A DNA stretch of 64,000 bases from a phage, in the sequence record PZ296772.1. The stretch is one strand, 5' to 3'. Positions 5,259-45,978 of this stretch are shown piece by piece (positions within the stretch are counted from its first letter, which is position 1; each line of letters opens with the position of its first letter). Position numbers and translations under genes: made by a program. The notes beneath the pieces were generated by a model, which did no database searches, was not told the DNA's origin, and saw nothing but the letters and a program-made list of their open reading frames with translations.

Positions 5259-5732
5259 ATGTTATTATCAGGCGCAAAATATAAAGAAGAAAAACAAAAA
5301 TTTTATGATGCACAGAATGGTAAGTGTCCTATTTGCCACCGTGAATTAGACCCTGATGTTCAAGGTAACCATCTTGACCACGACCATGAATTAAACGGGC
5401 CAAAAGCTGGTAAGGTTCGTGGTTTACTATGTAACCTGTGCAATGCAGCAGAAGGTCAAATGAAGCATAAGTTCAACCGTTCTGGTCTTAAAGGTCAAAA
5501 CGTTGATTACCTCGAATGGCTTGAAGCTCTTCTTGCTTATTTGAAACAAGATTATTCTGATAATAATATCCATCCTAATTTTGTTCCAGACAAAACTAAA
5601 GAGTTCTCAAGACTAGGTAAAGAGGAAATGATGACTGAGATGCTTCAAAGAGGATTTGAATATAATGAATCTGATACTAAAACACAATTAATAGCTTCAT
5701 TCAAAAAGCAGCTTAGAAAGAGTTTAAAATGA
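5259..5732 (+). CDS. 49: endonuclease VII (Holliday junction resolvase)
   Basis: 157 aa; CPICH...CNLC zinc cluster and HLDHDH motif matching T4 gp49 from memory. Confidence 0.9.
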   Translation: MLLSGAKYKEEKQKFYDAQNGKCPICHRELDPDVQGNHLDHDHELNGPKAGKVRGLLCNLCNAAEGQMKHKFNRSGLKGQNVDYLEWLEALLAYLKQDYSDNNIHPNFVPDKTKEFSRLGKEEMMTEMLQRGFEYNESDTKTQLIASFKKQLRKSLK

Positions 5733-6271
5733 CGATTGAAAAAGAAATTGAAGGACTAATTCATAAAACTAATAAAGACCTTTTAAACGAGAATGCTAAT
5801 AAAGATTCTCGTGTTTTTCCAACTCAACGGGACCTTATGGCTGGTATTGTGTCTAAACACATTGCCAAAAATATGGTCCCGTCTTTTATTATGAAAGCGC
5901 ATGAAAGCGGAATTATCCATTTCCACGATATTGATTATTCCCCTGCTCTTCCATTTACTAATTGCTGTTTAGTAGATTTAAAAGGAATGCTTGAGAACGG
6001 ATTTAAGCTCGGTAATGCACAGATTGAAACTCCTAAATCAATCGGCGTTGCTACTGCAATTATGGCGCAAATTACTGCACAGGTTGCTTCCCACCAATAT
6101 GGCGGAACGACTTTTGCGAATGTAGATAAAGTACTTTCTCCTTATGTTAAACGCACCTATGCAAAACATATTGAGGATGCAGAAAAATGGCAAATCGCTG
6201 ATGCGTTGAATTATGCTCAATCTAAAACAGAAAAAGATGTATATGACGCGTTTCAGGCGTATGAGTTAATT
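5729..6271 (+). CDS. nrdD: anaerobic ribonucleotide reductase NrdD, exon 1 (3' boundary approximate)
   Basis: 181-aa N-terminal part; reading frame resumes about 1 kb downstream in another frame. Confidence 0.8.
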
Positions 6272-6477
6272 TAATTCAGGCTCATGTAAAACCGGTCTAA
6301 ACGGGGAACCTCTCTAGTAGACAATCCCGTGCTAAATGTTCTTTTGAACTAAATGCCTAACGACTAACCGTGATGAATGTAGCGGTGTAGAATAGAAGCT
6401 AATGCTATTCGAAACGGCCGGCATCGAAAGATGAAGATATAGTCTAATCTGCATGGCGACATGCAGCAGTCATCTTG

Positions 6478-6485
6478 TATAAATA
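6478..6485 (+). promoter_or_regulatory. T4-type late promoter TATAAATA inside intron
   Basis: exact tataaata 30 bp upstream of endonuclease ORF, preceded by ctgcat/atgcag hairpin. Confidence 0.55.
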
Positions 6486-6514
6486 AGATTATCTTATGAA
6501 TACGAGGTGAAACA

Positions 6515-7285
6515 ATGAAATGGATAAAAAGACGTTGTACTAAAATAAAAGATAAAGACGCATTTACATACTTAGTTAAGTTTTCTAATGGCGACATTTA
6601 TATCGGTTATAAAAAATTTAGAACAATTAAAAACAAGCCCACAAACTGGAAAACTTACACAACGTCATCTAAGTATATAAATGAACGCTTAAAAACTGAT
6701 ACACCTACTAAATGGATAATTTTAAAAACATTTGATAGTTATAAAGATGCATTAAAACATGAAGAAGAGGTCATACGTAAATATTTTTATAGCAAAAAAT
6801 GTTTAAATAAATCCATAGGCGGTAAAAAGTTTTATAAGCATCCGGATACTGAAGAACATATTCAAAAATTAAGAGATGCTCATAAGGGTAAAGTGTTATC
6901 CGAATCTCATAAAAACAATATAAAATCTTCTGTGGCTGAATATTATGCTAAAAACAGAAGATCTAAGGAACATGTGCAAAATAATATCAATAGTCGAAAA
7001 AGTAAAAAACAAGTATCGATAAAGCTTAAAAATAAAACTTTTAGAAGTTTTAAAAAAGCAGCGGAATATTTAAATTGCACTGAAAGTGAAGTCGAAACTC
7101 ATCCTCTTGTTTTGAGTATTAAGACTACTATTCATAAAGTTCCTGAATATGTGGTTGTTGACGGTATTAAGTATACGTCTTATATAGAAGCAGCTAAAGC
7201 GCTAAATTTTCATCCTAGCACTATAAAAGAACGTTGCATATCTATGGACTATCCAAATTTTGTTGTTTCATATAAACGGGCATGA
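6515..7285 (+). CDS. GIY-YIG homing endonuclease, I-TevII-like
   Basis: 256 aa; N-terminal FTYLVKF...DIYIGYKK GIY-YIG motif; lysine-rich DNA-binding C-terminus; lies wholly inside the intron. Confidence 0.8.
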   Translation: MKWIKRRCTKIKDKDAFTYLVKFSNGDIYIGYKKFRTIKNKPTNWKTYTTSSKYINERLKTDTPTKWIILKTFDSYKDALKHEEEVIRKYFYSKKCLNKSIGGKKFYKHPDTEEHIQKLRDAHKGKVLSESHKNNIKSSVAEYYAKNRRSKEHVQNNINSRKSKKQVSIKLKNKTFRSFKKAAEYLNCTESEVETHPLVLSIKTTIHKVPEYVVVDGIKYTSYIEAAKALNFHPSTIKERCISMDYPNFVVSYKRA

Positions 7286-7292
7286 ATTTGCG

Positions 7293-8591
7293 ACTCATGC
7301 TGAATATAATGATGAAGTAAATACACTTTTCAGCTCTAATGGTCAAACGCCTTTTGTAACAATTACATTTGGTACGGGAACTGACTGGACTGAACGAATG
7401 ATTCAGAAAGCAATTCTGAAAAATCGTATTAAAGGTCTTGGTCGTGATGGGATAACTCCTATTTTCCCTAAGCTTGTTATGTTCGTTGAAGAAGGTGTTA
7501 ATCTTTATAAAGATGATCCGAACTATGATATTAAGCAGCTTGCTTTAGAGTGTGCAAGCAAAAGGATGTATCCTGATATTATTTCAGCTAAGAACAATAA
7601 AGCTATCACTGGTTCATCTGTTCCTGTTTCTCCAATGGGTTGCCGTAGTTTCTTGAGCGTATGGAAAGATTCGACTGGTAATGAAATTCTTGATGGACGT
7701 AATAATCTTGGTGTTGTAACACTGAATCTTCCTCGCATCGCGTTAGATTCTTATATTGGAACACAGTTCAATGAACAGAAATTTATCGAATTGTTCAATG
7801 AACGAATGGATTTATGTTTTGAAGCTTTGATGTGTAGAATTAGTTCCTTAAAAGGAATTAAAGCTACTGTTGCTCCTATTCTTTACCAAGAAGGTGCATT
7901 CGGGGTTCGTCTTAAACCCGATGACGATATAATTGAGTTATTTAAAAACGGTAGAAGTTCAGTGTCTTTAGGATACATTGGTATTCACGAATTGAATATT
8001 CTTATCGGTCGTGATATTGGACAAGAAATTTTAACTAAAATGAATGCTCATCTTAAACAGTGGACTGAAAGAACTGGGTTTGCTTTTAGTTTGTATTCTA
8101 CTCCTGCTGAAAACCTTTGCTATCGCTTCTGTAAACTTGATACAGAAAAATATGGAAGTGTAAAGGATGTTACTGATAAAGGTTGGTACACTAACAGTTT
8201 CCATGTTTCAGTAGAAGAAAATGTTACTCCGTTTGAAAAGATTTCTCGTGAAGCGCCATATCATTTCATTGCGACAGGTGGTCACATTTCTTATGTTGAA
8301 CTTCCTGATATGAAAAATAACTTAAAAGGTCTTGAGGCTGTATGGGATTATGCCGCACAACATTTAGATTATTTTGGTGTTAATATGCCAGTAGATAAAT
8401 GTTTTACATGTGGAAGTACCCATGAAATGACTCCTACTGAAAACGGATTTGTTTGTTCTATTTGCGGAGAAACTGATCCTAAAAAGATGAATACCATAAG
8501 AAGAACATGTGGTTATTTGGGAAATCCGAACGAACGCGGATTTAATCTCGGTAAAAATAAAGAAATCATGCATAGGGTTAAACACCAATGA
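7293..8591 (+). CDS. nrdD: anaerobic ribonucleotide reductase NrdD, exon 2 (5' boundary approximate)
   Basis: C-terminal CxxC...CxxC zinc site and glycyl-radical motif RRTCGYLG. Confidence 0.85.
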   Translation, partial: THAEYNDEVNTLFSSNGQTPFVTITFGTGTDWTERMIQKAILKNRIKGLGRDGITPIFPKLVMFVEEGVNLYKDDPNYDIKQLALECASKRMYPDIISAKNNKAITGSSVPVSPMGCRSFLSVWKDSTGNEILDGRNNLGVVTLNLPRIALDSYIGTQFNEQKFIELFNERMDLCFEALMCRISSLKGIKATVAPILYQEGAFGVRLKPDDDIIELFKNGRSSVSLGYIGIHELNILIGRDIGQEILTKMNAHLKQWTERTGFAFSLYSTPAENLCYRFCKLDTEKYGSVKDVTDKGWYTNSFHVSVEENVTPFEKISREAPYHFIATGGHISYVELPDMKNNLKGLEAVWDYAAQHLDYFGVNMPVDKCFTCGSTHEMTPTENGFVCSICGETDPKKMNTIRRTCGYLGNPNERGFNLGKNKEIMHRVKHQ

Positions 8592-9058
8592 ATTATGATA
8601 GATTTTATCCCTGTGATTTTGTGAATGGCCCTGGATGCAGGGTCGTTCTTTTCGTCACAGGTTGTTTGCATAAATGCGAAGGGTGTTATAATAAATCAAC
8701 ATGGAATGCTAGAAATGGTATTCCATTCACTGGTGAAACACTGGAACAATTAATTGAATGTTTGAATAATGATTATACAGAAGGATTAACTATAACTGGG
8801 GGAGACCCTCTTTATCCTGATAACAGAGATGTGATTCATTGCATTGTTCAAACAGTAAAAAATCTTTATCCCAGTAAAAGCATTTGGTTGTGGACAGGAT
8901 ATAAGTTTGAAGATATTAAACAACTAGAAATGCTTAAATATGTTGATGTTATTATTGATGGGAAGTATGAGAAAAATCTTCCGACCAAAAAGCTGTGGCG
9001 AGGATCAGATAATCAGCGACTTTGGTCAAATACCGATGGGGTGTGGAAACATGATTAA
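8588..9058 (+). CDS. nrdG: anaerobic RNR activating enzyme NrdG (radical SAM)
   Basis: 156 aa; CLHKCEGC radical-SAM cysteine triad; start overlaps nrdD stop. Confidence 0.9.
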   Translation: MNYDRFYPCDFVNGPGCRVVLFVTGCLHKCEGCYNKSTWNARNGIPFTGETLEQLIECLNNDYTEGLTITGGDPLYPDNRDVIHCIVQTVKNLYPSKSIWLWTGYKFEDIKQLEMLKYVDVIIDGKYEKNLPTKKLWRGSDNQRLWSNTDGVWKHD

Positions 9059-44223: not shown

Positions 44224-44901
44224 ATGAGCACTGATGTTATTATAGATTTTGAAACATTCGGCAATACATCAAAAGCGGCTGTTATTGACCTTGCGGTTAT
44301 TGCATATAATTCCGACCCTGAAGTTGTTGAATCATTTGAAGAACTTGTTCAACGAGGTAAGCGAATTAAATTTAATTTAGCTTCTCAGAAAGGGAAGCGA
44401 GTTTTCGCTAAATCCACTATGAAATGGTGGAAAGAACAATCGGCTGAAGCACGTAAAAACTTGGCTCCGTCTGAAGACGATGTCACTACGCTTGAAGGCA
44501 TTAAAATCTTTTTAGACTATTGCCGAGCTAATAAAGTTGACCAATGGAAATCACAGATGTGGTGTCGTGGTATGAGCTTTGACTTCCCGATATTGGTCGA
44601 TTTGATTCGTGACCTCTATCGTGATGAAGGTGTTCCTGAACCAGAGATTGATACTGATAAATTAGAACCGGTTAAATTCTGGGCTCAACGTGATATTCGT
44701 ACGGCAATCGAAGCTTACTCGTTGACACGAGGATTAAGTATGTGTCCATTACCGATGGGTACGCTAAAAGGATTCGTTGCCCATGATAGTATTCATGATT
44801 GTGCTAAAGATATTTTGATGTTAAAATATGCTCAGCGTTATGCGCTTGGTCTTGAAGATGTCCCTGAGAATCCTGACCCGTTAAGTGTAAAACAGCGATA
44901 A
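44224..44901 (+). CDS. dexA: exonuclease A (DnaQ-like 3'-5' exonuclease)
   Basis: 225 aa; N-terminal IIDFETFG exo motif; conserved position after dda. Confidence 0.8.
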   Translation: MSTDVIIDFETFGNTSKAAVIDLAVIAYNSDPEVVESFEELVQRGKRIKFNLASQKGKRVFAKSTMKWWKEQSAEARKNLAPSEDDVTTLEGIKIFLDYCRANKVDQWKSQMWCRGMSFDFPILVDLIRDLYRDEGVPEPEIDTDKLEPVKFWAQRDIRTAIEAYSLTRGLSMCPLPMGTLKGFVAHDSIHDCAKDILMLKYAQRYALGLEDVPENPDPLSVKQR

Positions 44902-44906
44902 AATCA

Positions 44907-44936
44907 GTTTACAACCAAGGACGGTTGGAGTATAAT
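44907..44936 (+). promoter_or_regulatory. sigma70-type early promoter (conserved-spacer family)
   Basis: gtttaca, spacer ccaaggacggttgg, tataat. Confidence 0.6.
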
Positions 44937-44966
44937 CTTTCTATCTTAACCAAACGGGAAACAATT

Positions 44967-45461
44967 ATGAATATCAATACTACGTCTACTTACATCCTGA
45001 AAGACGAAAAACAAATCAACTGGTACGGTGCTTCAGTGCGAGCTTATGAAAAGTTTTGTGAAATTTTAGGTGCCACTCAAGGTAATAGTTTCACTATTGT
45101 TAACTTCATTAAACAAGTTGAAGGCCCTTGGTTATTCTTAGAAATTAAAAATTCATACGGTACAATTTCTACTACTGCCATCCCAAGCACCGACTTTGAA
45201 CTGTTGATTGAAGAAGCACCTGTTAAAGATGGTCTCCACTTTGATATGGATATCGTTTGTATGTACGGTACTCTGATTAAGCCTATTGAGCCTACTGATT
45301 TATTGTGTAAATATGTTTCAATTCGACGCCCATTCGATGGTCCAGTAAATGGATGGGTAACTGACCAGTGGATTGAAGATGGGGTTGAACTTCTGAACGT
45401 TGTTCATGCCGGTGATTTTAGTGTGGTTCCACGTAGTGCAGTAGTTAATATTCTAAATTAA
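44967..45461 (+). CDS. paralogous family protein 1 (conserved C-terminal DQWxEDG domain)
   Basis: 164 aa; C-terminus GWVTDQWIEDGVELLNVVHAGDFSVVP. Confidence 0.55.
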   Translation: MNINTTSTYILKDEKQINWYGASVRAYEKFCEILGATQGNSFTIVNFIKQVEGPWLFLEIKNSYGTISTTAIPSTDFELLIEEAPVKDGLHFDMDIVCMYGTLIKPIEPTDLLCKYVSIRRPFDGPVNGWVTDQWIEDGVELLNVVHAGDFSVVPRSAVVNILN

Positions 45462-45463
45462 TG

Positions 45464-45493
45464 TTGTACATCCAAGGATGGATGGAGTATAAT
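45464..45493 (+). promoter_or_regulatory. sigma70-type early promoter (conserved-spacer family)
   Basis: ttgtaca, spacer tccaaggatggatgg, tataat. Confidence 0.6.
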
Positions 45494-45522
45494 GAATTCA
45501 ATTTAACAAAGAGAGAAAAATT

Positions 45523-45978
45523 ATGATTACTATTGGTGAAATTAAGCGTGTATCAACTGCATCCCGGTCTAAAGCCGCAGGTCGTCTGGTTGAAGTGGTA
45601 GGACTTCGCACAAATGGCATGGGACGCATTAAAGAAGTTAAAGTTCGAATCATTCCTAGTTTTGGACGTCAGGATACTCAGCACGCTTACGTAAGTCCTA
45701 AATTCTTGGAAACTCCTGTGAGCGCTCATTTTGCTTCTACTGAACCTAATGCACAGTTCAAATGGGCCTTGTGTAAAGGTGTTGAATTCCAGACTGATAA
45801 AGAATTTGACTTCATCGATGAATACGGTTATCCAAGCAAAACTGATACTATGTGTGGCTTCATTAGTGACCAATGGGTTGAAGATGGTGAAAAGTTATAC
45901 AATATCGTATTCTTAGGTGACTTCCGAGTTGTTAAAGAATCTGAAATCACTCGTTATGTGTCTCCTCGTAAAGCTTAA
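45523..45978 (+). CDS. paralogous family protein 2 (conserved C-terminal DQWxEDG domain)
   Basis: 151 aa; C-terminus GFISDQWVEDGEKLYNIVFLGDFRVV. Confidence 0.55.
   Translation: MITIGEIKRVSTASRSKAAGRLVEVVGLRTNGMGRIKEVKVRIIPSFGRQDTQHAYVSPKFLETPVSAHFASTEPNAQFKWALCKGVEFQTDKEFDFIDEYGYPSKTDTMCGFISDQWVEDGEKLYNIVFLGDFRVVKESEITRYVSPRKA

Follow-up and report, generated by a model that had tools for sequence, protein, structure and literature searches.

Group I introns in the nrdD, td and nrdB genes of the T-even phages are textbook elements. The closest of them to the locus considered here is the nrdD (sunY) intron of T4, whose endonuclease, I-TevII (258 aa), cleaves downstream of the point of insertion, at distances of 13 and 15 nt, and whose catalytic core is located entirely 5' of the ORF. 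In the T4 record (NC_000866), nrdD is annotated as a join, and the I-TevII gene lies inside an intron of 1033 nt (44819..45851). The td intron encodes another GIY-YIG enzyme, I-TevI, whose cuts fall upstream of the point of insertion, 23 and 25 nt away. The nrdB intron encodes I-TevIII, which is intact in RB3 and deleted in T4. A review of these systems (PMC2988022) describes the mapping of promoters for the T4 intron ORFs, done by primer extension, and gives I-TevII as an active enzyme.

We analysed a window of 64 kb (the whole stretch of DNA under study; 64,000 nt, record PZ296772.1) from a Tequatrovirus (T4-like phage); many genomes of this genus match its region 5700-8650 with 96-98% identity. 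Very probably, nrdD of this phage carries a mobile self-splicing group I intron, which shares its site and architecture with the T4 intron and represents a second, diverged lineage.

The nrdD introns of the window and of T4 have in common the host gene, the insertion site, the core placed 5' of the ORF, the ORF located in the 3' part and encoding a full-length homologous endonuclease, the 3'-terminal hairpin near the 3' splice site, and a Shine-Dalgarno-sequestering hairpin with a late promoter in its 5' arm. Stems P1, P7, and P9 are identical in the two introns. The differences concern length (1045 nt against 1033 nt in T4, with endonucleases of 256 aa and 258 aa), the sequences of P3, P4, P6a, P7.1, P7.2, P8, and the 3' hairpin, in all of which pairing is kept, and the wobble positions of the flanking exons. 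The td system resembles that of the window in being a group I intron of a nucleotide-metabolism gene with a GIY-YIG enzyme and late promoter/hairpin control, but it occupies a different gene, its ORF follows the 5' strand of P6 instead of P9, and its P1, guide sequence, and the remainder outside the shared core elements are unrelated to the window intron. I-TevIII, unlike the GIY-YIG enzyme of the window in nrdD, is an HNH enzyme hosted by nrdB.

The main features of the locus are as follows:

5729..6266, + strand: nrdD exon 1, 538 nt (179 codons and the first base of a Tyr codon; Pfam NRDD, 1.2e-40)
6267..7311, + strand: group I intron, 1045 nt, from after the U of the U.G pair to the terminal G7311 (T4 alignment and gap-free splice against intronless alleles)
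6292..6466, + strand: ribozyme core (RF00028 match and pair comparison with the T4 intron)
6470..6510, + strand: hairpin sequestering the ribosome-binding site of the endonuclease gene (arms 6470-6480/6500-6510)
6478..6485, + strand: TATAAATA, T4-type late promoter -10 element, exact match, in the 5' arm of that hairpin
6515..7285, + strand: homing endonuclease gene of the I-TevII family (256 aa; N-terminal GIY-YIG domain and NUMOD1 DNA-binding module)
7280..7300, + strand: 3'-terminal hairpin (7280-7285/7295-7300), 6 pairs, containing the endonuclease stop codon (7283-7285)
7309..7311, + strand: 3' strand of P9.0 and terminal G7311 (A7309/U7310 pair with U6448/A6447)
7312..8591, + strand: nrdD exon 2, 1280 nt including the stop codon (Pfam NRDD, 1.4e-122; Gly_radical, 1.2e-25)

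Exons and splice junctions

Exon 1 forms part of an ORF of 181 aa (5729..6274), which matches positions 1-141 of the Pfam NRDD profile. The match is continued by the ORF 7260..8591 (NRDD positions 145-562 and the Gly_radical domain), which contains exon 2, is read in a frame other than that of exon 1, and has no proper start, its first codon being a TTG within the endonuclease gene. Both exons are colinear with T4 and with six intronless alleles: T6, T2, Jbel, O157 typing phage 6 (O157tp6), AV116, and Elenatom.

The insertion site coincides to the base with that of the T4 nrdD (sunY) intron (alignment to NC_000866 44819..45851). At the 5' junction, TATGAGT/TAACG of T4 corresponds to TATGAGT/TAATT of the window, and at the 3' junction, CATTG/ATGAAG corresponds to TAATG/ATGAAG. 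Excision of 6267-7311 results in a CDS of 1818 nt encoding a NrdD protein of 605 aa, identical to that of T4 at 600 of 606 positions (stop codon counted). The spliced gene aligns with the six intronless alleles without a gap, and the excision restores the intronless sequence exactly, with no base gained or lost; the protein across the junction reads DAFQAYE/YEVNTLFSS in all six alleles. Since a one-base shift of either junction destroys this colinearity, the junctions are fixed after U6266 and after G7311. The latter base directly precedes exon 2 and is the terminal G expected at the 3' end of a group I intron. The spliced mRNA is predicted to read UAUGAGU/AUGAAGUA across the junction.

The first-pass annotation of this DNA, made from the letters alone, had put the insert at 6272-7292; these borders are replaced by 6267-7311 on the basis of the T4 alignment and the intronless alleles. 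It was right in describing nrdD as split and resumed downstream in a different frame, but the break "after codon 181" marks only the end of the ORF: the 5' splice site follows T6266, and the last two residues (L and I) together with the stop codon are intron sequence. It noted several U/G-compatible junctions giving in-frame fusions and could not set the exact one by eye; T4 and the six intronless alleles now settle it.

Ribozyme fold and promoter hairpin

The covariance-model search that had been proposed along with the first-pass reading was positive: in a permissive scan of the sub-region 6100-7500, Rfam RF00028 (Intron_gpI) matched 6235-6466 (model positions 1-253) with 73.2 bits (E = 2.4e-18), the gathering score of the family being 50. 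The default Rfam scan of the entire 64-kb window at the gathering threshold gave 0 matches. Since the permissive scan of the sub-region detects the intron, this miss is an effect of filtering and not an absence, and it should be taken as a caution for automated annotation. The Rfam placement of P1 at 6239-6264, within the exon, was rejected as conflicting with the junction derived from the six intronless alleles and T4. We laid out the helices on the basis of T4 homology, as listed below, using the names, P9.0 included, of the published sunY model:

6260-6266/6280-6286, + strand: P1, exon UAUGAGU with guide GCUCAUG, 7 pairs, same as T4
6292-6297/6416-6421, + strand: P3, compensatory changes relative to T4
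6301-6306/6325-6330, + strand: P4, compensatory changes relative to T4
6311-6313/6319-6321, + strand: P5, laid out by T4 homology
6331-6332/6355-6356, + strand: P6, laid out by T4 homology
6338-6341/6346-6349, + strand: P6a, compensatory changes relative to T4
6362-6366/6440-6444, + strand: P7, stem identical to T4
6367-6370/6383-6386, + strand: P7.1, compensatory changes relative to T4
6390-6394/6406-6410, + strand: P7.2, compensatory changes relative to T4
6422-6425/6430-6433, + strand: P8, compensatory changes relative to T4
6449-6455/6460-6466, + strand: P9, stem identical to T4

The U6266.G6280 wobble of P1 is positioned at the 5' splice site, and the entire catalytic core is located 5' of the endonuclease ORF. 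The group I secondary structure, on which the first-pass reading depended, is present: when the two lineages are compared over P1, P3-P9, P9.0, and the 3'-terminal hairpin, 42 of the 61 pairs, all of which can form in either intron, are unchanged with respect to the T4 intron, 18 are compensatory, 1 is changed on one side, and 0 are broken. Three or four compensatory pairs apiece occur in P6a, P7.2, and the 3' hairpin (4 of its 6 pairs, against GUAGAG/CUCUAC in T4), while P9.0 has one in its two pairs (AA/UU in T4). A match to snoZ159 at 7302-7390 (17.9 bits, E = 4.4) was dismissed as chance.

This structure and the homology to the T4 intron argue for self-splicing of the transcript. After transcription of nrdD as a pre-mRNA, the core 6292-6466 would fold and dock P1, and a free guanosine would attack after U6266. 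P9.0 and the 3'-terminal hairpin would then bring in the distant 3' end, and ligation of the exons after G7311 would give the mRNA for the 605-aa NrdD.

The late promoter motif noticed at first pass some 30 bp upstream of the endonuclease ORF is TATAAATA, which is separated from the ATG (6515) by 29 nt. Three copies of TATAAATA occur in the 64 kb against 7.3 expected from shuffles, which is not above chance, and the weight of this element comes from its position, which is homologous to that of the late promoter upstream of T4 I-TevII. In the GenBank record OL960581, TATAAATA is annotated as a late promoter. The surrounding hairpin holds the Shine-Dalgarno sequence GAGGUGA (6504-6510) in its 3' arm and encloses a small inner hairpin (6483-6488/6492-6497). 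The 91-nt stretch 6440-6530, which comprises P9 and this hairpin, has a folding energy of -28.7 kcal/mol (z = -5.15), and 0 of 200 shuffles were as good. T4 has a hairpin and TATAAATA at the homologous place, although its 5' arm differs and its hairpin lacks a 9-nt insertion present in that of the window. What is conserved is the predicted regulatory structure, not its sequence. A scan for sigma-70 promoters and terminators revealed nothing relevant.

By homology with T4, the endonuclease is predicted to be expressed only late. In long early and middle transcripts, the pairing of 6470-6480 with 6500-6510 would occlude the Shine-Dalgarno sequence and leave the endonuclease untranslated. Late transcripts would start just downstream of TATAAATA and, being devoid of the 5' arm of the hairpin, would permit its translation.

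The endonuclease and the probable spread of the intron

The ORF inside the intron agrees with the complete, I-TevII-like GIY-YIG endonuclease of 256 aa described at first pass. It is 56% identical to T4 I-TevII from end to end (257 aligned positions, E = 2e-101), scores above the cut-offs of the Pfam families SegE_GIY-YIG (PF19835, residues 9-106; 27.5 bits against 25, a small margin) and NUMOD1 (PF07453; 25.3 bits against 22.8), and matches PHROG 314, "homing endonuclease" (3.8e-29). In an alignment of 20 relatives, Y29, G31, W45, Y48, S51, S52, E83, and N98 are invariant and Y19 is conserved in at least 90%, so that the conserved columns cover the GIY Tyr, the YIG motif (Y29-I30-G31), and the Glu and Asn of the GIY-YIG fold. 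The conserved Arg column of canonical GIY-YIG enzymes was not found among these 20 relatives, and T4 I-TevII lacks this residue too.

Relatives of this protein are few. A word-index search of 5.8 billion proteins returned only two clusters at 90%, the window type with 64 members and T4 I-TevII with 38. An exhaustive search of 1.8 billion representative proteins returned only 3 with E at or below 1e-30, the next relatives being 38% identical, and a sequence search of the PDB gave no match at E up to 1. By homology, the protein is an uncharacterised sister of I-TevII in a family of few members. In a mixed infection, it would be expected to cut the intronless nrdD, probably, like I-TevII, within exon 2 at a small distance downstream of the insertion site, and repair from the intron-bearing genome would transfer the intron along with a little of the flanking exon sequence.

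Compared with T4 in blocks of 100 nt, the intron is 57-78% identical and the exons 90-100% (about 97%). The possibility that the window contains the T4 intron itself was rejected, as megablast connects it to T4 records only via a td-like block of 42 nt. The two types are also separate in their distribution. A query with the T4 intron found 25 records, all at least 99% identical and none of the window type; most of these are T4 strains, accompanied by T4T, RB55, RB59, PST, fPS-2, G8, U5, EC128, and Manna. The window-type intron (query with its non-core part) was found at full length in 44 phage records, all of them recent isolates and at least 99% identical. Its carriers span Tequatrovirus and Mosigvirus (one phage, F27), and the intron of HY03 is 100% identical to that of the window. 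As judged by these comparisons, the window intron is not a T4 allele but represents a sister lineage that has diverged from the T4 nrdD intron, a point missed at first pass. A query with the exon junction matched 690 records, and since 620 of these 690 have no intron at the site, targets for homing are abundant.

The exons next to the intron contain two tracts that are linked to it:

6238..6265 (-29 to -2), + strand: 5' exon tract, 8 of 10 third-codon positions different from the intronless alleles
7325..7343 (+14 to +32), + strand: 3' exon tract, 7 of 7 consecutive third-codon positions different from the intronless alleles

All changes in both tracts are synonymous. Beyond them, the window differs from intronless T2, T6, and Jbel at 0-2 positions per 25 nt, while the intronless alleles of Mosigvirus, O157tp6 and AV116, differ from its exons more widely. 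When eight phages with the near-identical intron are compared, the 5' tract extends from position -2 only (IME537) via -2/-8/-11 to -29 (the window). On the 3' side, +14, +17, and +20 are common to all eight, with an outer limit anywhere between +20 and about +38. Both intron-bearing types have G at position -2, where it pairs with C6281 in P1, whereas each of the six intronless alleles has A. HY03 and the window have 26 differences in the bin 6000-6249 and 0 inside the intron. These variable tracts fit the pattern expected from double-strand-break repair with variable resection and look like homing footprints, and their asymmetry is consistent with cleavage in exon 2.

In two natural derivatives, those of 215Ecol030PP (479 nt) and BYEP01 (345 nt), most of the ORF is missing. 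What remains in each is the intron from base 1 to about base 270 and at least its last 89 nt, including the 3'-terminal hairpin. They parallel the deleted nrdB intron of T4 as compared with the intact one of RB3.

Such derivatives indicate gene decay in the lineage, and together with the missing invariant Arg of the GIY-YIG domain they lend some credit to the idea that the intron still splices while its endonuclease, or the promoter/hairpin control, is dead, the element persisting by vertical descent and ordinary recombination. We regard this as quite improbable. The ORF is untruncated and can be aligned along its whole length with active I-TevII, which itself lacks the Arg and is nevertheless given as active (PMC2988022), and the 90% cluster counts 64 member sequences. 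Moreover, the intron remains at least 99% identical over different exon backgrounds in two genera and between tracts of variable length, which fits recent and repeated homing.

Even less credible, and in our opinion hardly to be considered, is that an endonuclease cassette has been inserted into nrdD, the halves of which are translated separately (a true split gene) or not at all (a pseudogene). Aeromonas phage Aeh1 has a functional split ribonucleotide reductase and so provides a precedent, and all of the inspected GenBank records with the insert annotate two separate nrdD CDSs and no intron. Such a cassette, however, would not be expected to contain an entire group I core in which 18 pairs are compensatory and none is broken, to have a U.G pair and a terminal G at its borders, or to restore the intronless sequence exactly on excision; the ORF of exon 2, starting at TTG inside the endonuclease gene, also speaks against separate translation. 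The viability of the carrier phages is no proof of splicing, since nrdD is dispensable for T4 under aerobic laboratory growth. The mobile self-splicing intron is the reading that we prefer, and under it the inspected two-gene annotations of nrdD are in error, and the junctions established above allow them to be put right; the window-type intron is present in at least 44 public phage genomes.

While the kind of element is well known, the window-type lineage is undescribed and unannotated: a literature search of incomplete coverage, in which absence is not proof, returned no description of it. The new biology is limited, and the main value of the analysis consists in the corrected junctions and annotation and in a second enzyme from a family with very few members, which could be useful in studies of target recognition by GIY-YIG homing endonucleases. 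In addition, the variable exon tracts represent a ready natural record of homing events.

The td-like block and a target-like sequence

Within the core, the 42 nt at 6296-6337 (P4, P5, and the start of P6) are 100% identical to the T4 td intron, while only 32 of 42 are shared with the T4 nrdD intron, and the identity with td ends abruptly on both sides. Gene conversion between introns co-resident in one genome is suggested as the simplest reading of this block, and domain shuffling between T4 introns is known from laboratory crosses. The paralogue of I-TevII, being 56% identical to it, may recognise the T2/T6-type target differently. We therefore propose only tentatively, and with more doubt than confidence, that the window intron is a natural mosaic possessing its own endonuclease specificity. 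If so, the locus would offer a second uncharacterised I-Tev enzyme together with a case of natural domain shuffling between T4 introns, and a difference in specificity would put two endonuclease lineages in competition for a single insertion site.

For the 20-mer spanning the intronless site (-10..+10), the best match in the whole intron is at 6492-6511 (16 of 20), overlapping the Shine-Dalgarno sequence, and 1 of 500 shuffles was as good; a 32-mer target tested against the intron was not better than shuffles. We treat a putative operator or ancestral target inside the intron as a lead rather than a result; the match echoes a published observation on T4 I-TevII (PMC2988022).

P1 and a td-like block in the ribozyme core

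The exon base two nucleotides upstream of the 5' splice site (window position 6265) is G in the carriers of the T4-type and window-type introns, and A in all six intronless nrdD alleles examined (T2, T6, Jbel, O157tp6, AV116, and Elenatom). This G pairs with C6281 in P1; therefore, the intron brings along a better P1.

Within the core, the 42 nt at 6296-6337, which take in P4 and P5 and run into P6, are 100% identical to the core of the T4 td intron, and this identity breaks off sharply at either end, while the T4 nrdD intron matches the same stretch at only 32 of 42 positions. The block may represent a gene-conversion patch between two introns of one genome.

Derivatives and relatives in other phages

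Two natural derivatives of the window-type intron were found in which the endonuclease ORF is mostly deleted:

301-779, Escherichia phage 215Ecol030PP (fetched locus L016): derivative of the window-type intron, 479 nt
301-645, BYEP01 (fetched locus L017): derivative of the window-type intron, 345 nt

Both retain the ribozyme core (from base 1 to approximately 270-293) together with the final 89-194 nt.

A further 42-nt stretch, 6349-6390 (the 3' side of P6 through P7.1), has a 97.6% match in many phages of approximately 86 kb infecting Salmonella or Escherichia, where it adjoins HNH homing endonuclease genes and, for some records, lies in nrdD. These phages seem to possess a related group I intron associated with another endonuclease family.

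Annotation, detection and the nrdD–nrdG junction

In every fetched public record bearing the window-type intron (HY03, IME537, SA20RB, F2, F27, FL44, and ELT1; loci L002 and L009-L014), nrdD is annotated as two separate CDSs with neither an intron feature nor a join, and the endonuclease is labelled either "homing endonuclease" or "hypothetical protein". Run over the full window (1-64000, 64 kb) at the gathering threshold, Rfam returned no match; when sub-region 6100-7500 was scanned alone with laxer filters, the group I intron family scored 73 bits against a gathering score of 50. Default filters can drop group I introns containing long ORFs.

Downstream, at 8588-8591, nrdG (8588..9058) begins on the nrdD stop codon with no intervening gene; this junction is occupied in T4 by mobC, an HNH endonuclease gene, and in HY03 by a gene annotated as SegH.

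A homing-site-like stretch inside the intron

When the 20-mer of the intronless homing site was compared with the whole intron, the top match (16 of 20 positions) was located at 6492-6511, overlapping the Shine-Dalgarno sequence of the endonuclease. It was equalled by one of 500 shuffles, and a 32-mer version of the test in the intron gave no significance. The 20-mer match is reminiscent of the published idea of an I-TevII operator or ancestral target.
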